Part shown: piece after piece, positions 79-32,848 of the stretch | Position numbering within the stretch: the stretch's first letter is position 1 | Layout of the letters: each line of letters starts with the position of its first letter | Source: Dehalococcoidia bacterium | GTDB lineage: Bacteria > Chloroflexota > Dehalococcoidia > Bin125 | Assembly (NCBI GenBank): GCA_965203775.1 | Contig: OZ241913.1 | Location: 3,242,653-3,306,652 of the forward strand | Length of the DNA stretch: 64,000 nt | Direction of reading: 5' to 3' | Translations under genes and position numbers: made by a program | Notes under the pieces: model-generated | The model's input: only the letters and a program-made list of their open reading frames with translations | Database searches by the model: none | What the model was told of the DNA's origin: nothing

Positions 79-1794
79 CTAGGGCGACGGGGCTGTGAGG
101 CGGTTGTTGGCGCTGTTGCCCCAGCAGGCGATAGTGCCGTCGGTCTTGATGCCGCAGGTGTGTTCATTGCCGGCGCTGACGGCGGTGTAGGTGCCTGCGG
201 TGACGGTGGTTTGGTCCTGGTTGTTGCGGCCCCAACAGGTGATTGCGCCGGCGCTGCTGAGCGCGCAGGTGTGATTTCTGCCGGCGCTGATCGCGGTGAA
301 CGTGCCCGAGGAGGGCGCGTCGCTCCTTTGGTTGTAAGCATTCCGGCCCCAGCAGGAGATCGCGCCGGCGCTGCTCAGCGCGCAGGTATGGCCCCCGCCG
401 GCGCTCAACGCAGTGAATGCGCCTGTCGGCGCGGCGGTCCGATCCTCAATGCTTTCGCCCCAGCAGTGGATCGCCCCGGTGCTGCGCAGCCCGCAGGTGT
501 AGGTGTCGCCGGCGCTGACTGCGCTGAACGTGCCCGTCTGCGCGTCGATCCGGCCTAACGTGCTGGCTCCCCAGCAGGAGACCGCTCCGCCGCTCGCCAG
601 TGCGCAGGTGTGCGACGCATCGGAGCCGCTGCCCAGCGCGGTGAAGCTGCCCGAGGGCGCGTTGAGGCGGTTGTTACTGCTCGCTCCCCAGCACTCAATT
701 GCGCCGCTGCTGCGCAGCGCGCAGGTGTGGTGCGCGCCGACCGCCAGCGCGGTAAATGAGCCCGTCGGAGCGTTGAGGCGGTTGTCGGCGTTGTTGCCCC
801 AGCAGACGATCGTGCCCGTGCTGCGCAGGGCGCAGGTGTGCGACCTGCCCGCGCTGAGCGCGGTGAACGTGGTTGGGGTTGGAGTCGGTGTAGGGGTTGG
901 CGTAGGCGTAGCAGGGTCCGGCGTTGCGCCGCCCTCGTCGTTGCTTGAGGTGTCCGCGACGGTCCGAGTAGCCGTTGTCGGGGTGAGCTCCGCAATCAGC
1001 TCAGGCAAGCGATCATCCTGCCCGCCCCAGCAGCGAGCGCGCTCGTCGTTGAGCGCGCAGGAGTGGCGCATTCCCGCGCTCACGGCGATGTAGCGCCCCG
1101 ACGGGGCGTTGGACTGGTCGTAGCGATCGTCGCCCCAGCACTCGATTGCGCCTGATTCGCGCAGCCCGCACGAGTGCCAGGCTCCGGCGCTGATTTGGGT
1201 GAAGACTCCCGTTGGGGCGTTGAGTTGGCTGAAGTTGTTGAGTCCCCAGCATTCGGCTGCGCCGTTTTCGCGCAGAGCGCAGCTATGCGTCGTGCCCGCG
1301 CTCACTTGCGTGAAGACGCCATCGGGGGCGTCGGTGCGTCCGAGGTTGGCGCGGCCCCAGCAGGCGATTTCGCCTGTTGTGCGCAGTCCGCAGGCGTGCA
1401 GATAGCCCGCGCTAACCGCGCTGAACTCCCCCTCCGGCGGATTCGCTTGTCCGTAGTCGAGCACGCTGCGGCCATAGCTGCTCGTTCCCCAGCACTCGAT
1501 CGCGCTGTCGCTCTTGCGGACGGCGCAGGCGAACTGCCAGCCCACGGCGATGTCGCTGAACGCGCCTTGCGGCGCGTTCTGATCTGCGCCCCAGCAGGCG
1601 ATTTCGCCGCCGCCCTGTCGGATGGCGCAGTTGTGCCAGTCGCCGGCGCTCACGGCCGTGTAGCGGCCTTCGGGGATGTCGCGCAGGTCTGCCTGGTTGC
1701 CGCCCCAGCAGCGGATCACGCCGTCGGCGCGGAGGGTGCATTGGTGCTCGCCGCCGGCGTCGAGCGCGAGGTAGCGGCTGGTTGAGGTGGGCAT
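79..1794 (-). CDS. RCC1-repeat (beta-propeller) protein, two repeat blocks joined by a PT-rich linker, paralog 1
   Basis: About 20 repeats of the type HTCALrstGaIxCWGxN and a (PT)n linker. The frame stays open upstream of the ATG at 1794 and encodes a signal-peptide h-region (KFLPIALAIAALLLAFLTLAQAA) up to the poly-C tract at 1866-1881. Confidence 0.75.
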   Translation of the reverse strand: MPTSTSRYLALDAGGEHQCTLRADGVIRCWGGNQADLRDIPEGRYTAVSAGDWHNCAIRQGGGEIACWGADQNAPQGAFSDIAVGWQFACAVRKSDSAIECWGTSSYGRSVLDYGQANPPEGEFSAVSAGYLHACGLRTTGEIACWGRANLGRTDAPDGVFTQVSAGTTHSCALRENGAAECWGLNNFSQLNAPTGVFTQISAGAWHSCGLRESGAIECWGDDRYDQSNAPSGRYIAVSAGMRHSCALNDERARCWGGQDDRLPELIAELTPTTATRTVADTSSNDEGGATPDPATPTPTPTPTPTPTTFTALSAGRSHTCALRSTGTIVCWGNNADNRLNAPTGSFTALAVGAHHTCALRSSGAIECWGASSNNRLNAPSGSFTALGSGSDASHTCALASGGAVSCWGASTLGRIDAQTGTFSAVSAGDTYTCGLRSTGAIHCWGESIEDRTAAPTGAFTALSAGGGHTCALSSAGAISCWGRNAYNQRSDAPSSGTFTAISAGRNHTCALSSAGAITCWGRNNQDQTTVTAGTYTAVSAGNEHTCGIKTDGTIACWGNSANNRLTAPSP

Positions 1795-1865
1795 GGCGGC
1801 CTGGGCGAGGGTCAGGAATGCGAGCAGGAGCGCGGCGATCGCGAGGGCGATCGGGAGGAATTTAT

Positions 1866-1881
1866 CCCCCCCCCCCCCCCC
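1866..1881 (-). repeat. Homopolymer tract, 16 C on + strand (16 G in the gene sense) inside the predicted signal-peptide region of RCC1 paralog 1
   Basis: Counted directly. ATG at 1929-1931 (minus) reads MTAAQRAGRALAALARSGGGGG then goes out of frame. 17 or 14 G would join it to the downstream ORF. Confidence 0.9.
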
Positions 1882-2072
1882 GATCGGGCAAGCGCCGCCA
1901 ACGCGCGGCCGGCGCGTTGGGCGGCGGTCATGAGGTCGGCACCGTGCTTCACGTCTGCCACTCTACACCAGCGCGGCTGGTTGCGCGATCTTGGGTTGAC
2001 GAGGGTTCTGTGTGAAGATGAGAGGCGACGGGGCGGGCAGCTGGGCTACACTGCCCGAACGGATGGGCGAGG

Positions 2073-3113
2073 ATGAGGATGGCGAACCCCAACAGCGTGG
2101 CAGAGGCGGTGGCTCTGCTGGGCGTCGCGCCGGGAGCGGACGCGGCGGCGGTGCGCAAGCGCTACCGCGAGCTGGCCAAGCAGCTTCACCCCGACCGCAA
2201 CCCCGATGATCCGCTGGCGGACCAGCGGATGGCGGAGCTGAATCGCGCCCGCGACCTGCTGGTCGACGGGGTGCCGCGCGACTTGCAGCGCGGGGCGCCG
2301 GCGAGTCCCCCGCCGCAGCCGAAGCCGGAACCGCAGCGCCGGCCGCAGTCGCGCGCCGAGCGTGCGGAGACGCATCAGGCGTTTCGCGACGAGATGGAGC
2401 GGGCGCGGCGCACGGATACGGAGCGCGAGCGTCGGCGTCGGGCGGCGCGGCGTCGAGCGCGGCAAGAGGCGGAGGAGCGCGCGCGGCGCGCCGCTGAGGC
2501 CGCCCGCGAGGCGGCGGACCAGCCGCCGTCGACCGAGCCGGCTACGGAACGCCGCCGCCGCCGACCGAGCGGGCAAGCGCGAACGGGCGCGAGCAAGACT
2601 GCCGCCCCGAAGCGACGCGGCGGCACCCGCGCGCGCAACGCGCCGCCCAAACGCGACGCATTCACCTCTCCGATCGGTCGAATCTGCGATCTGCTCTCCG
2701 CGCAGGGCTGGGAGGATGCGGTGGCCGCGGTTCGACAGCGCTACCGCGAGGCGGGGGCGTCTGCGCCGCCCAGCGCGGAGTTCGTGCTGTCGGTGGAGCT
2801 TGACGGCGAGGCGCGGGTCGCGGCGGTGGTGGTGGCCGCTCCCGGCGTGCTCGACGGCGCGGCGCTGGACTACGCGATCGGGCGGGCGGCGGAGGTCGGC
2901 GCGCCGTTCGCGTTCGCCGCGAACGAGCGGATGTTCCGTCGGGCCGGCGTCCGCAGCCGAGCACGCACGAATCCGAAAGCGCTCTCGAAATTCCCGAGCC
3001 CCGCTGAGCTGAGCGAGGCGCTGGCGCAGCAGATCGCGGAGGCTGAGGCGGGGGACGGATCGTCGAAGCGCGAGCGCGGGCCGGCGAATTTTGGGCGTCT
3101 GTTCCGTCGCTGA
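2073..3113 (+). CDS. J-domain (DnaJ-like) protein with an Arg/Glu-rich charged segment and an uncharacterised C-terminal domain
   Basis: N-terminus LLGVAPGADAAAVRKRYRELAKQLHPDRNPDD has an intact HPD motif, followed by ERERRRRAARRRARQEAEERARRAAEAA. Confidence 0.75.
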   Translation: MRMANPNSVAEAVALLGVAPGADAAAVRKRYRELAKQLHPDRNPDDPLADQRMAELNRARDLLVDGVPRDLQRGAPASPPPQPKPEPQRRPQSRAERAETHQAFRDEMERARRTDTERERRRRAARRRARQEAEERARRAAEAAREAADQPPSTEPATERRRRRPSGQARTGASKTAAPKRRGGTRARNAPPKRDAFTSPIGRICDLLSAQGWEDAVAAVRQRYREAGASAPPSAEFVLSVELDGEARVAAVVVAAPGVLDGAALDYAIGRAAEVGAPFAFAANERMFRRAGVRSRARTNPKALSKFPSPAELSEALAQQIAEAEAGDGSSKRERGPANFGRLFRR

Positions 3114-3145
3114 GACGGGCGGTTAGGCTCTCGGCAGGAGCAGCG

Positions 3146-4300
3146 ATGATCGAACTTAATGAGGCGCAGGAACTGATTCGGCGCACGGTGCGCGGCTTCG
3201 CGGAGGCGGAGATCGAGCCGATCGCGGACGAGATCGACCGCGAGGACAAGTGGCCGGGGCATTTGTGGCCGATGCTCGGCGAGTTGGGGCTGTTGGGCGT
3301 GACGATCGACGAGCGCTACGGCGGCTCCGACGCGGGGCTGCTGGCGGGCGTGATTGCGACGGAGGAGATCGCGCGGGCGTCGGCGTCGGTCGCGCTGTCC
3401 TACGGCGCGCACGCGAATCTGTGCGCGAACAACATCGCGACCAACGGCAGCGAGGCGCAGAAGCGGCGCTATCTGCCGGGATTGTGCAGCGGGGCGGAGG
3501 TGGGCGCGCTGGCGCTGACCGAGCCGGAGGCGGGCTCCGACGCGGTGGGCATCCGCAGCACGGCGGCGCGCGAGGGCGATGTCTACCGGCTCAACGGGAG
3601 CAAGATGTTCATCACCAACGGGTCGGTCGCGGACACGCTGGTGCTCTACGCCAAGACCGATCCTGAGGCGGGCTCGCGCGGGATCACGGCGTTCATCGTG
3701 GAGTCCTCGTTCGAGGGCTTCTCGGTGGGGCAGAAGTTGGACAAGGTGGGTCACCGCGGCTCGCCTACCGCCGAGCTGCTGCTGGAGGATTGCCTGGTGC
3801 CGGCCGACAATGTGCTGGGGCGGGAGGGCGGCGGCGCGGCGGTGATGATGCAGGGGCTGGCGGTCGAGCGGGCGTTTCTGGCGGGCGAGCCGCTGGGGAT
3901 TGCGCAAGCGGCGCTGGATGCGGCGGTCGGCTACGCCCGCGAGCGGCGGCAGTTCGGACAGCGGATCGGCGATTTCCAGCTGATTCAGGCGATGCTGGCG
4001 GACATGTACACGGAGTTGGAGGCGGCGCGCTGGCTGGTCTACCGCACGGCGTCGCTGGTCGAGCAGCGGGCGGCGCGGGGAGAGCGGGCGAACAAAGAGG
4101 CGGCAGCGGCGATTCTGTATTCGGCGGAGATGTCGAGTCGGGTGGCGGACAAGGCGGTGCAGATTCACGGTGGCTACGGCTACATGAGCGAGAGTCGGGT
4201 GGCGCGCTACGCGCGCGACGCGAAGCTGCTGGAGATCGGGGCGGGGACGAGCGAGATTCGGCGCTTGCTGATTGGTCGGGAGTTGGTGGGGCCGGAGTAG
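3146..4300 (+). CDS. Acyl-CoA dehydrogenase (isovaleryl-CoA dehydrogenase-like)
   Basis: Full-length ACAD pattern (SYGAHANLC, LTEPEAGSD, FITNG, GDFQLIQ, catalytic-base region GGYGY) recognised by eye. Confidence 0.9.
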   Translation: MIELNEAQELIRRTVRGFAEAEIEPIADEIDREDKWPGHLWPMLGELGLLGVTIDERYGGSDAGLLAGVIATEEIARASASVALSYGAHANLCANNIATNGSEAQKRRYLPGLCSGAEVGALALTEPEAGSDAVGIRSTAAREGDVYRLNGSKMFITNGSVADTLVLYAKTDPEAGSRGITAFIVESSFEGFSVGQKLDKVGHRGSPTAELLLEDCLVPADNVLGREGGGAAVMMQGLAVERAFLAGEPLGIAQAALDAAVGYARERRQFGQRIGDFQLIQAMLADMYTELEAARWLVYRTASLVEQRAARGERANKEAAAAILYSAEMSSRVADKAVQIHGGYGYMSESRVARYARDAKLLEIGAGTSEIRRLLIGRELVGPE

Positions 4301-4306
4301 GGGCGG

Positions 4307-4335
4307 TTGACAAGGCGGGGCGGGGCGGTCAATCT
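4307..4335 (+). promoter_or_regulatory. Sigma-70-like promoter of sRNA-like unit A
   Basis: TTGACA (4307-4312), 17-nt spacer, caatct (4330-4335). Confidence 0.5.
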
Positions 4336-4340
4336 TGCTT

Positions 4341-4475
4341 GCGAGGGCCGGCAACTGCGTAGCGGAAGACGGTCCCGCCGACGGCGTCACCAGGCCCCCG
4401 GCAGGCGCTGTCAATGGCTCAAGGGGGTCGGAGGGCTGGTCGCTGCCATTGCGGGGGCCGGCCCTCACTCGTTTC
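4341..4475 (+). ncRNA. Candidate structured small RNA, unit A of four tandem paralogous units (family unknown)
   Basis: Conserved core ggtcccgccgacggcgtcaccaggcccccggcaggcgctgtcaatggct. 3' hairpin gagggctggt (4431-4440) / gccggccctc (4458-4467). No coding frame is shared between units. Ends are approximate. Confidence 0.5.
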
Positions 4476-4536
4476 TGCGCCGCTGGTTCGGCCTTGTCAT
4501 GGATTCAGTGCAGCTAGAGGCGATCTGTAGGCGCGC

Positions 4537-4565
4537 TTGACATTTCTCAGCGAAGCGGCCAACCT
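4537..4565 (+). promoter_or_regulatory. Sigma-70-like promoter of sRNA-like unit B
   Basis: TTGACA (4537-4542), 17-nt spacer, caacct (4560-4565). Confidence 0.5.
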
Positions 4566-4570
4566 TGTTC

Positions 4571-4705
4571 CTGAGGGCCAGCCACTGAGTATTCGGCCGC
4601 TGGTCCCGCCGACGGCGTCGCCAGGCCCCCGGCAGGCGCTGTCAATGGCTTCAGGGGGTCGGAGGGCCAGCCACCGCCACTGCGGTCGCTGGCCCCATTC
4701 GTCTG
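4571..4705 (+). ncRNA. Candidate structured small RNA, unit B
   Basis: Same core as unit A. 3' hairpin gggccagc (4664-4671) / gctggccc (4688-4695), with pairing kept by compensatory changes relative to A and D. Ends are approximate. Confidence 0.5.
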
Positions 4706-4745
4706 GCCCACTCCCCAAACGCGGCTGGAGCTTGGCGTCGGGGGC

Positions 4746-4774
4746 TTGACAATCCGCTTGGCGGTGTGCATCAT
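4746..4774 (+). promoter_or_regulatory. Sigma-70-like promoter of sRNA-like unit C
   Basis: TTGACA (4746-4751), 17-nt spacer, catcat (4769-4774). Confidence 0.5.
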
Positions 4775-4780
4775 TGCTCA

Positions 4781-4915
4781 TGAGGACTGTACCGACCCGT
4801 GGGGGACGGGCGGCCCCGCCGGAGACGTTGCCAGCCCCCGGTTGCGTCGCCATTGGCTGTTTGGGGGTGCGAAGGTCGGCCCCTGCCATCGCGGGCGCCG
4901 GCCTTCATCCTTGCT
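4781..4915 (+). ncRNA. Candidate structured small RNA, unit C (most diverged)
   Basis: Diverged core (ccccgccggagacgttgccagcccccggttgcgtcgccattggct). 3' hairpin gaaggtcggc (4871-4880) / gccggccttc (4897-4906), with a compensatory gg-to-ag / cc-to-ct change. Ends are approximate. Confidence 0.45.
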
Positions 4916-4973
4916 GATCTGCTGCCTCAATCGCGTCCTGGCTCCGCGCCGACAGAGACGATCTACAGGCGCG

Positions 4974-5003
4974 CTTGACATTTCGGGGCTGCGCAGTGCA
5001 TCA
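4974..5003 (+). promoter_or_regulatory. Sigma-70-like promoter of sRNA-like unit D
   Basis: TTGACA (4974-4979), 18-nt spacer, catcat (4998-5003). The upstream context gcgcgcttgacatttc is shared with unit B. Confidence 0.5.
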
Positions 5004-5007
5004 TTGC

Positions 5008-5140
5008 GGTGAGGGCCGGCAACTGCGTAGCGGAAGACGGTCCCGCCGACGGCGTCACCAGGCCCCCGGCAGGCGCTGTCAATGGCTCAAGGGGGTCGGA
5101 GGGCTGGTCGCTGCGTAGCGGGGGCCGGCCCTCACTCGTT
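5008..5140 (+). ncRNA. Candidate structured small RNA, unit D (near-identical to A)
   Basis: Core identical to A. 3' hairpin gagggctggt (5099-5108) / gccggccctc (5124-5133). The 3' end overlaps the stop of the convergent DUF3800 gene. Confidence 0.5.
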
Positions 5141-5857
5141 GGCCGGCATGACCTCGATCGCAGCCTCGCTGCTCCCGTGCAGCTTCTCGCGCACGATTTC
5201 CCAATCGGGCCGTTCCGGGTAACCGACGATGTGCCGGCCAATCGGCGTGACAACCAGGTCCGCCAGCTCCAGATCAACGAGTCGCTCCGATTTGTCATGG
5301 AATGACAACGAGGCAATGCGGCGACGGATCGAGCGCCCGGTGAAATCGCCTGCCCCAACCTCTCGCAGCGTTCGCCACTGCCTGAGAGTGCGGCGGTCCA
5401 ACGCCGGCTGCCGCTGTTCGGCGCGAATTCGCCCGCCGCGGTGCTGGTTGCCGACGATCTCACAGAACCGAATGACCAACCGTTCGAGCGCGTAGTGGTA
5501 CGGGTCGCCGACGGCCGGAGCCGACTCCGCATCAAGGCGATCTTTGCGCACCGCACACGCCACAACGCTGAATTCAAGGCCGCGCAGCACGGCGCTGAGT
5601 TCGCGAAAGAATGCGTTGCGAAAGTCGCGGTCCTGTAGAACAGAGAACACACCAGCGTTCCGGGTGATCTCCACGGTGTGCAAGACGAAGTCCGTTTGCC
5701 CGAACAGATCCCGCTTGAAGGCCCGAATTGCCTCGTCGGCTCGGATCCTCGCGTAGTCATCTTCGAAGATCACTCCGCCGAGGACGAAGACGGGGTAGCC
5801 CGGGTCAATCTGCTTGAGGTTGTGATCCCCCGACTCGTCCAGACTCATCGTCTTCAT
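5132..5857 (-). CDS. DUF3800-like protein
   Basis: Start chosen at MKTMSLDESGDHN (ATG 5855-5857), matching the DESG N-terminus typical of DUF3800. The upstream 84 codons of the track ORF lie inside the UGSC gene. The start overlaps the UGSC stop as ATGA. Confidence 0.65.
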   Translation of the reverse strand: MKTMSLDESGDHNLKQIDPGYPVFVLGGVIFEDDYARIRADEAIRAFKRDLFGQTDFVLHTVEITRNAGVFSVLQDRDFRNAFFRELSAVLRGLEFSVVACAVRKDRLDAESAPAVGDPYHYALERLVIRFCEIVGNQHRGGRIRAEQRQPALDRRTLRQWRTLREVGAGDFTGRSIRRRIASLSFHDKSERLVDLELADLVVTPIGRHIVGYPERPDWEIVREKLHGSSEAAIEVMPANE

Positions 5858-6390
5858 GGTTGCGCGCCGCTGAGCAGAATCTCCACGCCCTGGGCGTAGG
5901 CCTCGGCGGCGCGGGCAGCTAGCTCTGGCTGGCTGGCGCTGCCGATGGGGTGGTCTACCAGGGCGAAGGGGAAGTTGGGGAGGCCGAGGGTGCGGGCGAT
6001 CATTTTGCTCGTGGGCTCGAACGGATGCGTGCAGATCGCCAGCGCGGGCTTGCTCAGCTGCTCGAAAGTGATCGCGTCGTGCACACTGCACGTCGAGCAG
6101 GAGCCTCAATCGCCGACGGCGGTGATCAGGAAGTCCACGTTGTGGCTGAGATCGCGGAGCAGCTGCGGGTCGGCGACGCGGGAGGCGTTGGGCTTGGCCG
6201 TCTCGCGCGCGATGCGGCAGCCGTGCCGCTCGGCGAAGCGCTCGGCGGTCAGCCGCAGCAGGCGGTCGGCGTTGACCTTGCCGTTGGAGAGCAGGCCGAT
6301 TTTGAGGCCGTCGAGCGCGGACAGCCGCGCCGCCGCCGCGTAGCCGGTCTGCGGGGTTTGCCCGGTCGGGTCGAGGAGTTCGAGCGCCAT
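5854..6390 (-). CDS. UGSC-family selenoprotein (in-frame TGA = Sec at 6106-6108)
   Basis: Track ORFs 6106-6390 and 5854-6084 are in the same frame. Read-through gives ...ITAVGD-U-GSCSTCSVHDAITFEQ..., i.e. the UGSC motif. A hairpin follows the TGA. Confidence 0.7.
6075..6095 (-). promoter_or_regulatory. SECIS-like stem-loop downstream of the in-frame UGA
   Basis: RNA sense cgacgugca-gug-ugcacgacg: 6 perfect bp plus 2 bp beyond an A-A mismatch, with a G/U-containing loop. It starts 10 nt after the UGA. Confidence 0.55.
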
Positions 6391-6433
6391 GATGCCTGCC
6401 TTTGCTGGTTGCGCCTGGTTGGTTGGCTCGGCG

Positions 6434-7489
6434 TCAGCAGTCGAGGCAGACGCCGATCGGCCTGGTTTGGTAGAGCGAGTTGCGCCCGCGGCTCCAGGAG
6501 GGCAGGAAGGCGGAATGCCCGCCGGCTTCGCCGCCCGCGACCACGATCAGGATGTCCCCGGGCTCGCGCCCGCGGTGGAACGCGCCCGCGCCTCGCTCGT
6601 CAACGCCCGGGGCCAGGCCGTCGGCAGTGCGCTCGGCCGGCCACTTGCCGTGCGCGAGCAGTTCGGCGGCGGGGCGCCGGGCGCGCTCGAACAGATAGCG
6701 CTGCACATCCTCGCGGGCGTAGCCCGCCGAGGCGGCGATCTGCGCGTGTTCGGGCGACATCACGACCAGCGATTGGCCGTCGGTCAGCGCGCCCAGCGCG
6801 GCCATCGTGTCGGCGAAGGTGTCGAGCAGCGTGTCGGGATCGGCCGTGTAGTGGTTCTCGATGTTGTAGAAGCCGGACGCGGCGAAGGTCGTGACGGTGC
6901 TGACTTCGGGCGGGAAGCCGAGGCCGATGTGCAGCGGCTCCCAGGGGCTGTGCGCGGCGTTCTCGCCGATGCAGCAGCTGTACTTGCCCGGCCAGCCGGT
7001 GGTGGAGCGGTCGGCGATGCCGGGGGTCATGCGGAAGATGTTGAGGATGACGAGTCGGATTGCGCGGCCGATGGTGGCGTTGGCGCGGGCGCCGGGGCCG
7101 AACACGTTGACGCCGGTGTTGAGCCCGATCTCTTCGCCGATTTCGCCAGAGACGATCAGCACCGGCGCGGAGCCGCCGGTCGAGGCCGTCGATCCGTGGA
7201 AGTTGTAGGCGTCTTCGTTGAGCGCTTCCAGCGCGGCGAGCACGGTGGGGAAGTACTGCGGGAGGCAGCCGGCCATCACGGCGTTGATCGCGGCGTCCTG
7301 CACGCTGCACTCGCGGCCGGTGGCGGGGTGGCGGGCGACGACCTCTTCGGGCGGGCGTCCGGCGGCGGCGAGAAAGCGCTCGACCCGCTCGCGGGCGGGC
7401 GGCACGACGGGCAAGCCGTCGGTCCAGCCCTGCTCGTAGCACCAGTCGATCGCGGAGAGTTCGTCTTCAAGGTGGTGTGAGGTGGTCAT
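6434..7489 (-). CDS. Conserved hypothetical protein (351 aa, C-terminal CLDC), first gene of the UGSC cluster
   Basis: Long ORF with a non-repetitive, balanced composition, co-directional with the UGSC gene and 43 nt upstream of it. No family recognised by eye. Confidence 0.6.
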   Translation of the reverse strand: MTTSHHLEDELSAIDWCYEQGWTDGLPVVPPARERVERFLAAAGRPPEEVVARHPATGRECSVQDAAINAVMAGCLPQYFPTVLAALEALNEDAYNFHGSTASTGGSAPVLIVSGEIGEEIGLNTGVNVFGPGARANATIGRAIRLVILNIFRMTPGIADRSTTGWPGKYSCCIGENAAHSPWEPLHIGLGFPPEVSTVTTFAASGFYNIENHYTADPDTLLDTFADTMAALGALTDGQSLVVMSPEHAQIAASAGYAREDVQRYLFERARRPAAELLAHGKWPAERTADGLAPGVDERGAGAFHRGREPGDILIVVAGGEAGGHSAFLPSWSRGRNSLYQTRPIGVCLDC

Positions 7490-7545
7490 GCCTCAATTCT
7501 AAGGCGTGTTCGCACATGGCCGGCCGCCCTCCCATCGCACCCCGC

Positions 7546-9129
7546 TCAGGGCGAGCGCGTCGCGGGCGCCTGGTCTTCAACGTTGCGGCCCCAGCAGGCG
7601 ATCGTGCCATCGGTCTTGATGCCGCAGGTATGCGCATAGCCTGCGCTGACTGCGCTGTAGGTTCCCGCCGCGACCGCCGTCTGGCTGCTGGCATTGGAGC
7701 CCCAGCAAACGACCGCTCCCGCGCCGGTCACCCCGCAGGTGTGCGCATTCCCCGCGCTGACCGCGCTGTAGGTTCCCGCCGTGACGTCCGTCTGGCTGTT
7801 GGTGTTCAGACCCCAACAGACGATCGTCCCCGTGCTGCGCAGCCCGCAGTTGTGGCTGCCGCCCGCGCTGACGGCGGTGAACGTGCCTGTCTGCGCAGCG
7901 GTCCGATCGTTGCCGCTGTTTCCCCAGCAGTGAACCGCTCCCGTGCTGCGCAGTCCGCAGCTGTGACTGCCGCCCGCGCTGACGGCGGTGAATGTGCCCG
8001 TCAGCGTGGAGGTATCGGTCCGACCGTTGCCGCTGGCTCCCCAGCAGGAAACTCCACCACTGCTCGCCACCGCGCAGGTATGCCCCGCCTCGGAGCTGCT
8101 GCCGAGCGCGGTGAAGCTGCCTGAGGGCGCGGTCGTGCGGCTGTGGCCGTTGAATCCCCAGCAGACGATTGCGCCGCTGCTGCGCAGCGCGCAGGTGTGC
8201 GAGTTGCCGGCTGCCAGCGCGGTGAAGTCGGAACCCGTCGGCGGGGTGGCGCGGTTGTTGGCGTTGTTGCCCCAGCAGTCGAGCGTGCCCGTGCTGCGGA
8301 TGGCGCAGGTGTGGAAGCCGCCTGCGCTGACGGCGGTGTACGTGGTCGTCGGAGTTGGCGTCGGCGTCGGTGTGGGAGTTGGCGTGGGCGGGTCCGGCGT
8401 CGTCTCGCTCTCGTCGCCGCTTGATGTATCCGCGACGGTTCGGGTAACAGTGGTCGGCGTGAGCTCCGCAATCAGCTCAGGCAGGCGATCATCCTGCCCG
8501 CCCCAGCAGCGCGTGCCCGTGCGGCTTAGCGCGCAGGAATGGCGCATTCCTGCGCTGATGGCGAGATAGCGCCCCGACGGGGCGTTGGATTGGTCGTAGC
8601 GGTCGTCGCCCCAGCACTCGATTGCGCCTGATTCGCGCAAGCCGCAGCTGTGCCATGCTCCGGCGCTGATTTGGGTGAAGGCTCCTGATGGGGTGTCCAA
8701 CTGGCCGAAGTTGTTCAGCCCCCAGCACTCGGCTTCGCCGTTTTCGTGGAGGGCGCAGGAGTGGGTCGTGCCGGCGCTGATTTGGGTGAAAGTGCCTGAT
8801 GGCGCGTCGGTGCGTCCGAGGTTGGCGCGGCCCCAACAGGTGATTTCTCCCGTCGTTTGCAGTCCGCAGGCGTGGAGGTAGCCAGCGCTCACGGCACGGA
8901 ACTCGCCCTCCGGTGGATCCGCCTGGCCGTAGTCGAGCACGCTGCGGCCATAGCTGCTGGTTCCCCAGCACTCAAGCTCGCTGTCGCTTTCGCGGACGGC
9001 GCAGGCGAACTGCCAGCCTGCGGCGATGTCGCTGAACGCGCCTTGCGGCGCGTTCTGATCTGCGCCCCAGCAGGCGATTTCGTCGTTCTCCTGGCGGATC
9101 GCGCAGTTGTGCCATGCGCCGGCGCTCAC
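7546..9129 (-). CDS. RCC1-repeat protein, paralog 2 (track start is internal; the frame is open up to the poly-G tract at about 9342)
   Basis: Same architecture as 79-1794. Upstream in-frame translation RKPLSIALAIAALLLAALTLAQAATPTSTSRHLALDAGGEHQCTLRADGLIRCWGG matches the paralog 1 N-terminus but contains no start codon. Confidence 0.75.
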   Translation of the reverse strand: MSAGAWHNCAIRQENDEIACWGADQNAPQGAFSDIAAGWQFACAVRESDSELECWGTSSYGRSVLDYGQADPPEGEFRAVSAGYLHACGLQTTGEITCWGRANLGRTDAPSGTFTQISAGTTHSCALHENGEAECWGLNNFGQLDTPSGAFTQISAGAWHSCGLRESGAIECWGDDRYDQSNAPSGRYLAISAGMRHSCALSRTGTRCWGGQDDRLPELIAELTPTTVTRTVADTSSGDESETTPDPPTPTPTPTPTPTPTTTYTAVSAGGFHTCAIRSTGTLDCWGNNANNRATPPTGSDFTALAAGNSHTCALRSSGAIVCWGFNGHSRTTAPSGSFTALGSSSEAGHTCAVASSGGVSCWGASGNGRTDTSTLTGTFTAVSAGGSHSCGLRSTGAVHCWGNSGNDRTAAQTGTFTAVSAGGSHNCGLRSTGTIVCWGLNTNSQTDVTAGTYSAVSAGNAHTCGVTGAGAVVCWGSNASSQTAVAAGTYSAVSAGYAHTCGIKTDGTIACWGRNVEDQAPATRSP

Positions 9130-9343
9130 CGCGCTGTAGCGGCCTTCGGGGGTGTTGCGCAGATCTGCCTGGTTGCCGCCCCAGCAGCGGATTAGGCCGT
9201 CGGCGCGGAGCGTGCATTGGTGTTCGCCGCCGGCGTCGAGGGCGAGGTGGCGGCTGGTGGATGTGGGGGTGGCGGCTTGGGCGAGGGTCAGGGCGGCGAG
9301 CAGGAGCGCGGCGATCGCGAGGGCGATCGAGAGCGGTTTACGT

Positions 9344-9358
9344 CCCCCCCCCCCCCCC
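9344..9358 (-). repeat. Homopolymer tract, 15 C on + strand (15 G in the gene sense) in the signal-peptide region of RCC1 paralog 2
   Basis: Counted directly. GTG at 9428-9430 (minus) reads MNHTANLPTAAQRARRAAAALTRFGGGGG then hits a stop. 14 or 17 G would restore the frame. Confidence 0.9.
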
Positions 9359-9439
9359 GAATCGGGTAAGCGCCGCCGCCGCGCGGCGGGCGCGTTGGGC
9401 GGCGGTCGGGAGGTTGGCGGTGTGGTTCACGGTTGTCAC

Positions 9440-10900
9440 TTTACACCAGTGGGGCGTCTTCGTGATAGCTGCGGGGATGGGGGTGTGGAGAGTTGCTTTG
9501 CGCGCGGTTCCTGCCTGCGCAGGAATGACGGTGGGGGGGCGCAGGAATGACGGTGGGGAGGTGGGGGATGACGAGAGGGGGTGCGGGGGTGACGGGAGAG
9601 GGGCGCGCAGGAATGACGGAATGGGGTAGGTGTGACGGGAGGGAGGCGTGGGAGTGAGGGAGGGAGGCGTGAGGATGGCGAGAGAGGGGGCGGGGATGGC
9701 GGGAGTGTGGATGCCGCCTTGGAGGGTGTGGGCTGCCGCTCGGCCGCTGGTGGACGCTCGGGGCCTCCCACCCCCCACCTAACCTCCCCCCTGGAAGGGG
9801 GGAGGGATGAATTGGGGAAGGGGCGAGGAAAGTGGGGTTGGGAGCGGGTGGGTTCCTGCCTGCGCAGGAATGACGGTGGGGGGCGCGGGAATGACGGGAT
9901 GGGGGCGCAGGGGTGGCGAGAGGGGGGCGCGGGAATGGCGGGAGGGGCGCGCGGGTTCCTGCCTGCGCAGGAATGACGGAGGGGCGCGCGGGGGTGACGG
10001 AATGGGGTAGGTGTGACGGGAGGGAGGCGTGGGGGTGAGGGGAGGGAGGCGTGGGGGTGAGGGGAGTGTGGATGCGCTTTGGAGGGTGTGGGCTGCCGCT
10101 CGGCCGCTGGTGGACGCTCGGGGCCTCCCACCCCCCACCTAACCTCCCCCCTGGAAGGGGGGAGGGATGAATTGGGGAAGGGGTGGGTGTGTGTGAGGGG
10201 GGAGAGGGGTGGATTGGCGGGGTAGGTTCCTGCCTGCGCAGGAATGACGGAGAGGGGGCGCGGGAATGGCGGGAGGGGCGCGCGGGGGTGGCGGGAGGGG
10301 CGCGCGGGTTCCTGCCTGCGCAGGAATGACGGAGGGGGGCGCGGGGGTGACGGAATGGGGTAGGTGTGACGAGAGGGAGGCGTGGGGATGAGGGGAGTGT
10401 GGATGCGCTTTGGAGGGTGTGGGCTGCCGCTCGGCCGCTGGTGGACGCTCGGGGCCTCTCACCCCCCACCTAACCTCCCCCCTGGAAGGAGGGAGGGATG
10501 AATTGGGGAAGGAGGGGGTTGGGGGGGTGTGAGGGGGGATGCGTGTGTGGGGTGGATTTTGGGTGGGTTGCTGGCTGTGCGGGGGTGACGGGGTGGCGCG
10601 CGGGTTCCTGCCTACGCAGGAATGACGGAATAAGGGCAGGAATGACGGAGGGAGGCGCGGGAATGGCGGGAGGGGCGCGCGGGGGTGGCGGAGGGGGTGC
10701 GCGCGGGTTCCTGCCTGCGCAGGAATGACGGAATGGGGGGGCGCGGGAATGGCGGGAGGGGCGCGCGGGGGTGACGGAGGGGGTGCGCGTGGGTTCCTGC
10801 CTGCGCAGGAATGGCGGAGGGGGGAGGCAGGGATGGCGGGAGGGGGGCGCGGGGGTGTGGCGGAGGGGGTGAGGGGGCGTGGGCGATCGGGGTGGGGTGG
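9440..10900. repeat. About 1.45 kb gene-free array of REP-like elements (families A and B) organised as about 350-380 bp macro-repeats
   Basis: Family A copies near 9506, 9851, 9955, 10225, 10306, 10603, 10706 and 10791. Family B (cctcccccc-tggaa-ggggggagg hairpin) at 9783-9805, 10143-10165 and 10474-10497. The block gacggaatggggtaggtgtgac recurs near 9615, 9996 and 10345. Confidence 0.85.
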
Positions 10901-11956: not shown

Positions 11957-12120
11957 CGGCGCCGGGTTGGTTGGGGCGCGGGATGTGTTGCGGGGGTTGG
12001 GGAGAGACAGGCATGGTCGCGCACCTTTGTTCTTCTGTGAGGGTAAGGGTAGCACGGTTGCGGGGAGTTGGCGGCGCCGGGTGGTTCCTGCCTGCGCAGG
12101 AATGACGGAGGAAGTGCAGG

Positions 12121-27285: not shown

Positions 27286-27458
27286 GCATTCCTCCGTTCC
27301 CGGGTGGGTGGTGTCATTGAGTAAGCTATGCAGCGTTGGCGGCAGCTTGGTTTCGCGCGGTTTACGCGCTTGTGTCGTTTGGATGTCGCCGTGTTTCGGG
27401 GATGTTTCGGGGACTGATCGTGAGTGGGGTAAATCGGGCAGGTGAGCGGAGCGGGACG

Positions 27459-27890
27459 ATGAACTATCGGCTGATGCGGGCGGTGACGCGAATTCAGGAT
27501 GCGCAGTTTTCGCTGTTTGGGGGGCGCTGGATGGGTCCGCCGACGCTGCGGTTGACGACGACGGGTCGGCGGAGCGGTCGGGCGCGGCGGGTGCTGCTGC
27601 TGTATCTGGAGGATGGGGAGCGGCTGGTCGTGATCGCGTCGGCGGGCGGGGCGGCGGCGGATCCGGACTGGTGCAAAAATCTGCGGGCAAATCCGCGGGC
27701 GGTGGTGGAGCGCGGCAGGCGGGCGACGGCGGAGTATGAGGCGGTGGAGTTGGAGGGTGAGGAGCGGGAGGCGATGTTCGGGAAGATGTGCGGGCTGTTT
27801 TCGCATTTCGAGGGGTATCAGCGGAAGGCGGGGCGTTTGATTCCGGTGGTGGCGTTGGAGCGGGTGGGGTTCCTGCCTGCGCAGGAATGA
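27459..27890 (+). CDS. Deazaflavin(F420)-dependent nitroreductase-family protein
   Basis: TTTGRRSGRARRVLLLYLEDGERLVVIASAGGAAADPDWCKNLRANP pattern. The C-terminal GFLPAQE and the stop codon come from a family A repeat. Confidence 0.7.
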   Translation: MNYRLMRAVTRIQDAQFSLFGGRWMGPPTLRLTTTGRRSGRARRVLLLYLEDGERLVVIASAGGAAADPDWCKNLRANPRAVVERGRRATAEYEAVELEGEEREAMFGKMCGLFSHFEGYQRKAGRLIPVVALERVGFLPAQE

Positions 27891-28257
27891 CGGTGAAGGG
27901 CGCGGGAGTGACGGTTGGGGATGACGAGTGGGGGGTGGGAGTGGCGAGCGGGGGGGGGGGGGCGGGAGTGACTAGCGGGAGCGCAGGAGTGGCGAGCGGG
28001 GGCGCAGGAATGACGGCGCGGGGATGACGAGTGGTGGGGCGGGAATGGGGTTGGGGGAGAGGGGTGGTGCGCTTGGGGGGTGGTGGGTGTTCGCGGCCGC
28101 TCACCCCCCACCTAACCTCCCCCCTGGTAGGGGGGAGGGACCTGAAAGGGAGGGGGATTGTTGTGAGGGAGAGCGGGCGGAATGGATGGGGTGGGTTCCT
28201 GCCTGCGCAGGAATGACGGTTGAGGGCGCAGGAGGAATGGATGGGCGGCGGGTGGGT
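27868..28257. repeat. REP-like array (families A and B), left part, truncated by the IS insertion
   Basis: Family A at 27868 and 28195, family B hairpin at 28116-28139. The half copy gggtgggttc ends at 28257. Confidence 0.8.
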
Positions 28258-29294
28258 TCGCTAAGTTGGCGCTTGGGGTGCAACGGATGTTGGAGGTGGA
28301 GCGATGGCCCGAACGCACACGCAGCTCAGCCGCGAGGAGCGCTGGCGGCTGGCCCGACTACACGCCGAGGGCCGCTCCGCGCGGCAAATCGCGGCAACTC
28401 TGGATCGCGCGCCATCGACGATTACTCGAGAGTTGAAGCGCAACGCGCGCGCCGACGGCGGTTACGACCCGGACTACGCCCAGCAGCAGACCCGCGCCCA
28501 CTGCATGACTGGGCTTCCGCGGCTTGCGGCTGGAGCGCGACGCCGAACTGCGCGAGCAGGTGCTGAACATGCTCGCCGCCGGCCGCTCGCCCCAGCAGGT
28601 CGCCGGGCGGCTCAAGCGCGAAGCCGGGCGGCACGTGATCTCGCCCGAGAGCATCTACCGCTTCATCCACGCCCAGATCGCCCGCACCAAGGACTACCGC
28701 TTCGCCCGCTATCTGCCCCGCGGGCGGGTCAAGCGCGGTTACAGCCGCACGCGCGGCGCGCGCGGCTCGACCGATTACCTGCAGGAGCGCCGTCCGCTCA
28801 GCGAGCGCCCGCCCGAGGCCGACCAGCGCCTGGTCTACGGCCACTGGGAGGTGGACCTGATGAGCTTCGGCCAGGGGCGCCCGCCGCTGCTCGTGCTGCA
28901 GGAACGCCGCTCCCGCGCGCTGCTCGCCGCGGCCCTGCCGAGCAAGGCCGCCGAGCCGCTCAGCCGCGTCCTGCGCGGGCTGTTCCGGCGCCTCCCGCCG
29001 GCCCTCCGGCGCAGCGCCACCTTCGACAACGGCTCCGAGTTCGTCCGCCATCACCGGCTCCACGACCTGGGCGTCGAGACGTTCTTCTGCGACCCGCATT
29101 CGCCCTGGCAGAAGGGCGGCGTGGAGAACGCAATCGGCCGGCTGCGCCGCAACACCGACCTCAACGCGCTCTCCGCCGCCGCGCTCCACGCCGTCATCCG
29201 CGCCGCCAACAACACCCCCCGCAAGTGCCTCGACTACCAAACCCCCGCCGAAGTGCTCCACAACCAACTGTTGCATTTGCAAGCTGACTCCACA
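28258..29294 (+). mobile_element. IS30-family insertion sequence inserted into a family A repeat
   Basis: IS30-type transposase. Imperfect terminal inverted repeats (gcttggggtgcaac... / ...gttgcatttgcaagc). TTC lies on both flanks (28255-28257 and 29295-29297), and the flanks reconstitute gggttcctgcctgcgcagg. Confidence 0.75.
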
Positions 29295-29315
29295 TTCCTG
29301 CCTGCGCAGGAATGA
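28304..29315 (+). pseudogene. IS30-family transposase, interrupted by a frameshift near 28515-28525
   Basis: The N-terminal HTH (MARTHTQLSREERWRLARLHAEGRSARQIAATLDRAPSTITRELKRN) is in one frame. The remainder (LERDAELREQVL...DDE region...HSPWQKGGVENAIGRLRR) is in another frame. The ORF runs past the IS end into the flanking repeat. Confidence 0.7.
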
Positions 29316-29640
29316 CGGTTGAGGGCGCGAGAATGATGAGTGGGGGCGGGAGCGGCGAGCGGGGGGCGGGAATGGGGTTGGGGGAGAGAGGTGGTGCGCT
29401 TGGGGGGTGGTGGATGTTCGCGGCCGCTCACCCCCCACCTAACCTCCCCCCTGGTAGGGGGGAGGGACCAGAAAAGGGCGGGGGATTGTTGTGAGGGAGA
29501 GCGGGCGGGATGGGGCGGGAATGTGTGCGTGGGAGGAATAGATGGGGTGGCGGGTGGGTTCCTGCCTGCGCAGGAATGACGGTTGGGGGCGCGGGAAATG
29601 AGGGGGAGGGGGCGCGGGAAATGAGGGGAGGAGGGGAATT
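29295..29640. repeat. REP-like array, right part
   Basis: Family A at 29295 and 29557, family B hairpin at 29443-29465. This macro-unit is homologous to 28030-28257. Confidence 0.8.
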
Positions 29641-29693: not shown

Positions 29694-29768
<75 letters not shown>

Positions 29769-29861
29769 ACCGTGGACTGAGGGAGCAGGCTGCGAAAGCG
29801 TGTTGAGCGTGCGGCGTGTGCGGCGCGGATGCGCGCCGCTGCGCTGCGCAGTGGGTAGGGC

Positions 29862-32848
<2,987 letters not shown>

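Follow-up and report, generated by a model that had tools for sequence, protein, structure and literature searches.

The window analysed here is a stretch of 64,000 nt from the genome of a Dehalococcoidia bacterium (assembly GCA_965203775.1, contig OZ241913.1, positions 3,242,653-3,306,652). It carries two genes for RCC1-repeat proteins on its minus strand, paralog 1 (P1) and paralog 2 (P2), and in each of them a long poly-G run lies between the start codon and the segment that codes for the hydrophobic core (h-region) of a predicted signal peptide. An earlier reading of the sequence (the original prediction) had described the P1 run as a slipped-strand contingency locus. The P1 gene and its leader are composed of the following elements.

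1960-1971, minus strand: conserved upstream motif CTGGTGTAGAGT with a -10-like TAGAGT, 6-7 nt before the GTG
1950-1952, minus strand: GTG, likely the true P1 start, in frame with ATG 1931; conserved
1929-1931, minus strand: ATG named in the original prediction, sharing the frame of the GTG; not conserved
1882-1949, minus strand: Arg-rich signal-peptide n-region, KHGADLMTAAQRAGRALAALARS, read in the GTG frame, which every copy keeps open
1866-1881, minus strand: poly-G tract, 16 nt by direct count (C16 on the plus strand), Gly5 when in frame
1795-1865, minus strand: h-region and A-Q-A signal-peptidase-type site, (D)KFLPIALAIAALLLAFLTLAQAA, in the RCC1 frame
1812-1814, minus strand: TGA that closes, by translation, the 46-aa product of the GTG start at G16
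79-1794, minus strand: mature RCC1-repeat protein, 571 codons plus stop, from the list of open reading frames (ORFs) and Pfam

The count of exactly 16 G, from 1881 to 1866 on the minus strand, agrees with the claim that such a run parts the P1 start from the h-region. At 16 G the frame is shifted; the in-frame lengths are 14, 17 or 20. Read from ATG 1931-1929, the P1 frame gives MTAAQRAGRALAALARS and GGGGG, continues with INSSRSPSRSPRSCSHS, and ends at the stop TGA 1814-1812. The RCC1 ORF, extended upstream in its own frame, reads GGGGGDKFLPIALAIAALLLAFLTLAQAA-MPTSTS, and directly past the tract GGGGG-DKFLPIALAIAALLLAFLTLAQAA-MPTSTS; the Asp codon of (D)KFLPIALAIAALLLAFLTLAQAA takes its G from the last tract base, 1866. 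ATG, GTG and TTG were all absent from the RCC1 frame between the stop TAG 1965-1963 and ATG 1794-1792, as had been proposed for the segment between the tract and the h-region. It had also been proposed that the secreted form needs 14 or 17 G, and in silico the addition of one G or the removal of two did produce a single unbroken ORF. The RCC1-repeat identity of P1 was likewise upheld: its ORF matched the Pfam families RCC1_2 (PF13540, E = 1e-84, 276.7 bits against a cut-off of 22, in 11 stretches) and RCC1-like domain (PF25390, E = 2e-52, 179.5 bits against a cut-off of 150). The body is formed by two RCC1-like propeller regions with a Pro/Thr-rich linker between them.

The original prediction was silent on P2 sharing the P1 split, and on the split being a trait of a multi-copy family. 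The P2 gene spans 7546-9430, its product is 74% identical to that of P1 at the amino-acid level, and its leader has the same arrangement.

9438-9449, minus strand: P2 copy of the conserved upstream motif, CTGGTGTAAAGT
9428-9430, minus strand: P2 GTG start, VNHTANLPTAAQRARRAAAALTRF...
9344-9358, minus strand: P2 poly-G tract of 15 nt, out of frame (14 or 17 required)
7546-9343, minus strand: P2 h-region RKPLSIALAIAALLLAALTLAQAA and RCC1 body, ~599 codons plus stop

From its GTG, P2 reads VNHTANLPTAAQRARRAAAALTRF-GGGGG-T and stops at TAA 9340-9338, and the RCC1 frame past the tract reads GGGGG-RKPLSIALAIAALLLAALTLAQAA-TPTSTS. The earliest ATG, GTG or TTG in the P2 RCC1 frame is GTG 9129, within blade 1; since no start codon of that frame precedes blade 1, both an upstream start and a frame change are required. 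From the Arg-rich n-region, the hydrophobic core of 18-20 residues and the A-Q-A, judged by eye, we infer that both leaders code for Sec-type signal peptides.

G or C runs of at least 13 nt were found at three places in the window (16, 15 and 13 nt), and all other runs were at most 7 nt long. A G13 pattern gave 0.02 matches in shuffled sequence against the 8 overlapping matches observed at 3 loci, and composition predicted 0.06 runs of this kind per 64 kb; the G16 run of P1 is far above chance expectation. The third run, G13 at 27950-27962 on the plus strand, is intergenic, lies in a short G-rich repeat array downstream of the ORF at 27336-27890, and appears unrelated to the RCC1 genes.

Directly upstream of P2 lies an array of a near-palindromic element, TTCCTGCCTGCGCAGGAA, resembling repetitive extragenic palindromic (REP) arrays. 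The window holds 14 copies of it in a single orientation, with 0 expected by chance (46-63; 9 copies in 9508-10811; 12085-12102; 27870-28213; 29295-29576), and the element is also arrayed upstream of the RCC1 gene of a relative (L001 below).

Start codon and upstream motif

The original prediction took the ATG at 1929-1931 as the P1 start. Its frame logic stands, the GTG being in the same frame, whereas the identity of the start probably does not: the ATG position is CTG in the P1 ortholog on OZ241849.1, the complete 3.31 Mb chromosome of a Dehalococcoidia metagenome-assembled genome (MAG), and CCG in P2. The GTG was kept in 16/16 family copies with a recovered 5' end. Because it is present in all 16 recovered leaders and the ATG is not conserved, the GTG at 1952-1950, 21 nt upstream of the ATG, is the likelier P1 start.

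The motif CTGGTGTAGAGT stood before the GTG with identical spacing in 16/16 copies with a recovered 5' end. Within the window, it was confined to the two RCC1 leaders and one site with 1 mismatch, against 0.13 matches expected by chance. A sigma-70 scan at both window leaders returned no -35/-10 pair. Judged by its sequence and fixed spacing, the motif may be a promoter whose mRNA is leaderless or nearly so. An Rfam scan found a known RNA family at neither window leader. RNAalifold, applied to 13 leaders, gave a covariation term of -0.1 kcal/mol and no conserved stimulatory structure by the tract; the predicted pairs were mostly those of the G run against C-rich coding sequence.

The tract family and selection on it

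Window positions 1376-9469 aligned to OZ241849.1 3,040,001-3,048,000 at 91-93% identity, so the window derives from a close relative of the OZ241849.1 organism. The aligned segment holds true orthologs of both genes. The tract lengths in the window and in OZ241849.1 were 16/16 for P1 and 15/15 for P2, and the flanks differed by several substitutions. Moreover, the OZ241849.1 ortholog of P1 has a 12-nt in-frame deletion in the h-region, consistent with translation of that segment. A third P1 ortholog (L242, 93% identity, on a contig with 2x coverage) has G17, which joins TAAQRARRALAALARS-GGGGG-DKFLPIAL as the original prediction anticipated; this contig carries an extra C upstream and many indels in the body, so that a difference of +/-1 is unreliable there. 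Three further relatives (L243, L244 and L245), with 83-87% amino-acid identity to the product of the gene at 6434-7489, keep the backbone of the region (a methyltransferase gene, a 351-aa gene, two UGSC genes, an acyl-CoA dehydrogenase gene and a DnaJ-domain gene). Both RCC1 genes are absent from it, which argues that the copies are lineage-specific insertions and that the family expanded in the clade of the window and OZ241849.1.

A full-length protein query retrieved only generic multi-repeat RCC1 proteins with at most 46% identity and no orthologs, whereas a query made of the leader and the first blades, used in its place, found metagenomic homologs. Exact-sequence look-ups gave no record for any of three window proteins. 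The leader was also searched as a DNA pattern in genome and metagenome contigs. The pattern was permissive and its matches were mostly due to chance; among the matches listed, true leaders were present only in OZ241849.1, and a scan of Joint Genome Institute (JGI) metagenomes yielded 0 true leaders among the matches listed. On OZ241849.1, the pattern scan found nine dispersed leaders and synteny added a tenth, the P1 ortholog, giving at least 10 genes with tracts of G14-G20. Together with the two window genes, the tract family counts at least 12 genes. We compared 18 copies: the 2 of the window, 10 of OZ241849.1, and 6 on six metagenome contigs, namely five relatives at G13-G16 and the 2x-coverage ortholog L242. 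A G run occupied the homologous site in 18/18 copies, with lengths of 13, 14, 15, 16, 17 and 20. The individual tracts were as follows.

L001: G16, in frame owing to one additional G that lies 25 nt upstream
L002: G16, out of frame
L003: G14, out of frame (in-frame lengths 13 and 16)
L004: G3-T-G11, in frame
L005 (~55% identical at the amino-acid level to the N-terminal P1 query): G13, in frame
OZ241849.1 L021, L032b, L049, L053 and L061: G15, out of frame (for L053, which lacks its 5' end, by inference)
OZ241849.1 L032a, L043 and L097: G16, out of frame
OZ241849.1 L088: G14, out of frame (in-frame lengths 13 and 16)
OZ241849.1 L083: G20, in frame, with an unbroken 623-aa ORF from GTG

As in P2, most copies have no start codon of the RCC1 frame before blade 1 and hence require an upstream start. 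Gene callers place the starts either within the h-region or at a Met further inside, and the proteins are in consequence annotated as truncated and non-secreted.

Four of the 17 scorable copies were in frame (L083, L004, L005 and L001; P = 0.28 for at most four at an expectation of 1/3), which fits random or "off"-favoured states and not an always-on family. The out-of-frame tracts of the window and OZ241849.1 clustered narrowly: the eleven that need 14, 17 or 20 read 15 (six) or 16 (five), and never 14 or 17. The G14 tract of L088, which needs 13 or 16, is the twelfth out-of-frame copy.

Some copies carry damage outside the tract. Extra 1-nt indels were seen in L001 at 6690-6880 (at least 4 within 190 nt), L002 at ~6064, L003 at ~4168 and L004 at ~1096. 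Two OZ241849.1 copies have truncated bodies in the open RCC1 frame, L097 with 139 aa and L088 with 470 aa.

Both window copies contain ~590 intact codons past the tract. We compared nine intact bodies (438-595 codons), 8/9 of which are out of frame at the tract, by the pairwise Nei-Gojobori ratio of nonsynonymous to synonymous divergence (dN/dS). The ratios were 0.18-0.46 among the nine and 0.18-0.40 for P1 against other family members. For the P2 ortholog pair, in which both tracts are G15, dN was 0.055, dS 0.184 and omega 0.30. As this pair shares an out-of-frame length, its omega argues that the RCC1 frame of P2 has been translated since the two genomes split.

Selection also acts on the tract itself. 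GGG makes up ~10% of the Gly codons in the RCC1 bodies, compared with 22% in ten window genes, and dS between paralogs is 0.5-0.85. That a pure G run persists in 17/18 copies despite this codon usage and divergence shows that selection maintains its purity as a nucleotide sequence. The copies fall into two leader types, set apart by an indel of 1 nt on the upstream side of the run and another of 2 nt on its downstream side (85 vs 88 nt outside the tract). Because these flanking indels compensate to a multiple of 3, the n-region and the h-region behave as one reading frame across the tract.

Interpretation of the out-of-frame tracts

The best reading of these data, which we hold with moderate confidence, is slipped-strand phase variation of the leader tract. 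The G16 run of P1 would be a selected homopolymer that sits, in the leader of a secreted RCC1-repeat protein, where the positively charged n-region gives way to the hydrophobic h-region, and slipped-strand mispairing during replication would add G's to it or delete them. A run of 14, 17 or 20 G would put the GTG start in frame with the h-region, so that the protein is made and exported. With 15 or 16 G, translation would stop after 30-46 residues and the copy would be silent. Changes of run length would leave the mature protein as it is, since the leader that holds the run is cleaved off. Both window copies, at 16 and 15, would be silent, each one step away from an "on" length. Should the "on" state be at a disadvantage most of the time, 15 and 16 would form a neutral two-state "off" island between 14 and 17. 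Such an island would explain the clustering at 15-16 and the missing 14 and 17, and the two ortholog lengths drifting on it would both agree by chance about one time in four.

Several features expected of a contingency locus were observed here: a long pure repeat in the 5' coding region, a repeat number that sets the frame, and signs of selection on the repeat together with "off" copies that are not pseudogenes. The original prediction of a slipped-strand contingency locus is therefore supported in part, by the architecture, the frames, the family-wide tract and the selection, and weakened by the equal out-of-frame lengths of the orthologs and by a possible +/-1 miscall.

Several observations weigh against phase variation. 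The equal ortholog lengths are not what very fast random switching predicts, and they fit a stable state or read-through equally. Tract lengths in relatives, a check named in the original prediction, gave a divided answer: those of paralogs range over 13-20, whereas those of orthologs agree, the only differing one being the unreliable G17 of L242. In the window and OZ241849.1 taken together, 1/12 copies were in frame (P = 0.054), a marginal "off" excess for which selection of the "off" state, systematic undercalling or slippage read-through might account. The copies with extra indels or truncated bodies may be decaying, or their assemblies may be indel-prone or poor. High-frequency change of tract length within populations is predicted from sequence comparison. 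Moreover, codon-position variability in the n-region showed third-position bias in no frame, so the signature of protein-level constraint is missing there. Translation of the n-region is suggested by the conserved GTG and by the in-frame copies L083, L004 and L005, and the constraint on it would be at most openness and Arg-richness. Finally, long-read consensus struggles with homopolymers longer than 10 nt, and every platform has difficulty with runs of 15-16 (PMC9262707).

This last point leads to the possibility that the split is an assembly artefact. The true length in P1 would then be 17 or 14, with the gene in frame and the consensus wrong by a base or two. In that case P1 would have no split, just a conserved homopolymer coding for Gly5. 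We consider this unlikely, although the observed 16 is just one base below the in-frame 17, and the paper cited above describes runs of 10 nt or more as problematic. The contig names of the relatives resemble the output of long-read assemblers, and several of these contigs have extra 1-nt indels in the body. The low-coverage G17 of L242 joins the n- and h-regions exactly, and 1/12 copies in frame in two long assemblies is what systematic undercalling could give. To bring every copy into frame, however, the six 15s would have to be off by -2 or +1 and the five 16s by -1, with zero correct calls of 14 or 17; as mixed errors of this kind and no correct call would be needed, an artefact in all copies is improbable under any unbiased error model. 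Two separately deposited assemblies agree on the lengths at both orthologous loci, the scaffold-named assembly of L003 is also out of frame (G14, needs 13 or 16), and the spread of 13-20 between copies is too wide for +/-1 noise. The rest of the window contains long intact ORFs, the longest of them reaching 1389 aa (by relaxed segmentation, a rough check of indel quality), and is thus not generally indel-ridden. Some of the 16s, including that of P1, may nevertheless really be 17s.

A second explanation, to which we also give a minor share, leaves the DNA unchanged: the tract is fixed out of frame and read through, either by RNA polymerase slipping on the 15-16-nt run or by the ribosome slipping on GGG codons. 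A constant fraction of the product would be in frame, and the tract would be an expression attenuator or a noise generator and not a heritable switch. The same facts suit such stable out-of-frame read-through about equally well as a contingency switch. Ortholog lengths have stayed at 16/16 and 15/15 while the body was under purifying selection over a dS of 0.18, and in the two long assemblies 0/11 standard-type tracts read 14 or 17. The run exceeds the length of the RNA:DNA hybrid and allows realignment without mismatches, an argument made by Baranov et al. 2005 as relayed in PMC3711429. Slippage products were proposed at a mycobacterial poly-G run (PMC7835394), and repeat-controlled "off" alleles yield low expression by frameshift suppression (bioRxiv 10.64898/2026.04.01.715767). 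On the other hand, copies that need +1 and copies that need -1 both occur, and a single directional ribosomal frameshift cannot serve them all. The in-frame copies L083 (G20), L004 and L005 indicate that an out-of-frame design is not obligatory. Well-documented efficient slippage concerns A/T runs, G:C hybrids being more stable, and a stimulatory RNA structure lacks covariation support. Read-through and DNA-level switching can coexist. That the family is built to be out of frame, with its output coming from RNA-polymerase or ribosome slippage, alone or atop rare slippage of the DNA, strikes us as a rather doubtful proposition. If true, slippage would give each of at least 10 secreted propeller genes a low, noisy and individually tunable output. 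We know of no precedent for a conserved poly-G recoding device in Chloroflexota.

It is very unlikely that P1 is a cytoplasmic protein translated from ATG 1794, with the upstream poly-G as an untranslated leader or regulatory DNA, e.g. a G-quadruplex-forming element. P1 does have an ATG at 1794-1792, the n-region has no codon-position bias, and the leader DNA is conserved above the synonymous sites of the body, which could point to a function at the level of the nucleic acid. We rejected this start because the ATG is unique to P1: the position codes for Thr (ACC or ACG) in the ortholog and nearly all copies, and their next start lies within blade 1. Moreover, the segment from the tract to 1794 codes for a hydrophobic core and AQA in a frame kept through the 12-nt deletion, the flanking indels are compensated modulo 3, and three copies are unbroken ORFs from GTG.

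Least probable of all is a decayed gene, a pseudogene formed by frameshift in the mutation-prone run, as P1 being out of frame in the assembly and the extra frameshifts or truncated bodies of L097, L088 and L001-L004 might suggest; a long-standing pseudogene was rejected on the basis of the intact bodies and dN/dS well below 1, also in the ortholog pair that shares its out-of-frame length, and the tract is pure in 17/18 copies. The possibility raised in the original prediction, a decayed gene out of frame in all relatives, is contradicted by the purifying selection on out-of-frame copies and by the copies that are in frame.

Phase variation, as the preferred reading, would place the RCC1 family beside a well-known class of systems. 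Repeat-driven on/off switching of exported proteins is commonly seen as a mark of host-adapted pathogens and commensals that have small genomes, among them Neisseria, Haemophilus, Campylobacter, Helicobacter and Mycoplasma. The pilC genes of Neisseria gonorrhoeae and N. meningitidis reportedly carry a poly-G run within the part that codes for the signal peptide (work attributed to Jonsson et al. 1991). As in pilC, the G run of P1 lies in the signal-peptide region, where frameshifts would toggle the exported protein and leave the mature sequence unchanged. In pilC, however, there are one or two copies in a host-restricted proteobacterial pathogen and switching was shown experimentally, whereas here at least 12 RCC1-repeat genes belong to an uncultured Dehalococcoidia lineage with 67% GC and switching is a prediction. 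The opa genes of Neisseria form ~11 scattered loci with CTCTT repeats in the leader-peptide region, most of them off at any time. The RCC1 genes are similarly multi-copy and scattered, each with its own frame-shifting leader repeat, and most would be off (1/10 in frame in OZ241849.1). The opa repeat is a pentamer and its products are outer-membrane beta-barrels, while here the repeat is a homopolymer and the products are RCC1 propellers.

Simple-sequence poly-G/C contingency loci are also established in Campylobacter jejuni, Helicobacter pylori and Haemophilus (PMC3711429, PMC5084427). The RCC1 tracts share with them a G/C homopolymer in the 5' part of an ORF, a presumably surface-related function and a frame set by the tract length; in those loci, the length varies between strains. 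In those genera, the tracts are usually 8-13 nt long and occur in low-GC, small, host-adapted genomes, often in glycosyltransferase or restriction-modification genes. By contrast, the tracts described here have 13-20 nt and lie in a high-GC genome with otherwise (the intergenic G13 aside) no run longer than 7 in 64 kb.

A high-GC example is the frdB-frdC junction of Mycobacterium bovis/BCG, where a poly-G run varies over 10-22 nt between strains and transcriptional slippage was proposed (PMC7835394). It resembles the RCC1 tracts in being a coding poly-G run that alters the reading frame in a high-GC genome; unlike them, it belongs to a single metabolic operon, where it fuses two subunits, and is neither a leader-peptide switch nor part of a gene family. 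In endosymbionts, frameshifts in poly-A tracts are rescued by polymerase infidelity (Wernegreen et al. 2010; Baranov et al. 2005; both as relayed in PMC3711429), and repeat-controlled genes have leaky "off" states (bioRxiv 10.64898/2026.04.01.715767). There, the product is made via slippage from genes that are under purifying selection and have conserved out-of-frame homopolymers, as the read-through explanation would have it for the RCC1 family. The examples on record have A/T runs or dinucleotide repeats and not G15-16, and we know of no slippage rescue at G15-16 in a signal peptide. Literature searches for phase variation in Chloroflexi and for the accessions found nothing relevant. If the phase-variation reading is correct, a dozen or more secreted RCC1 genes, each with its own poly-G switch, would extend this strategy to a very different bacterial branch and would suggest a fluctuating selective agent acting on secreted or surface proteins, e.g. 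phage, grazers or a host. We must also note that MAG quality pipelines would flag such frameshifts as errors or "polish them away".

Other features of the window and relatives

The gap that separates the acyl-CoA dehydrogenase gene from the next one holds three copies of a direct repeat of 94-148 nt (4299-4464, 4602-4695 and 4967-5132), 87-89% identical, which yield spurious look-alike ORF ends (…DQPSDPLEPLTAPAGGL…). The window has a complete 23S rRNA gene at 29861-32846 on the minus strand with a tRNA gene downstream of it (29698-29769, minus strand), and no 16S rRNA gene was found in the window. An IS30-like transposase on the plus strand (28304-29315) is split into two overlapping frames, an N-terminal helix-turn-helix frame at 28304-29287 and a catalytic one at 28524-29315. 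There is no homopolymer where the frame changes, near 28490-28525, which leaves a true pseudogene or an indel as the explanation. In the distant relative L245, a G11 run at 4009-4019 stands right before a tandem array of ~20-nt repeats (CCCGGATTCGGTCGGCCGAT) and is unrelated to the RCC1 genes.

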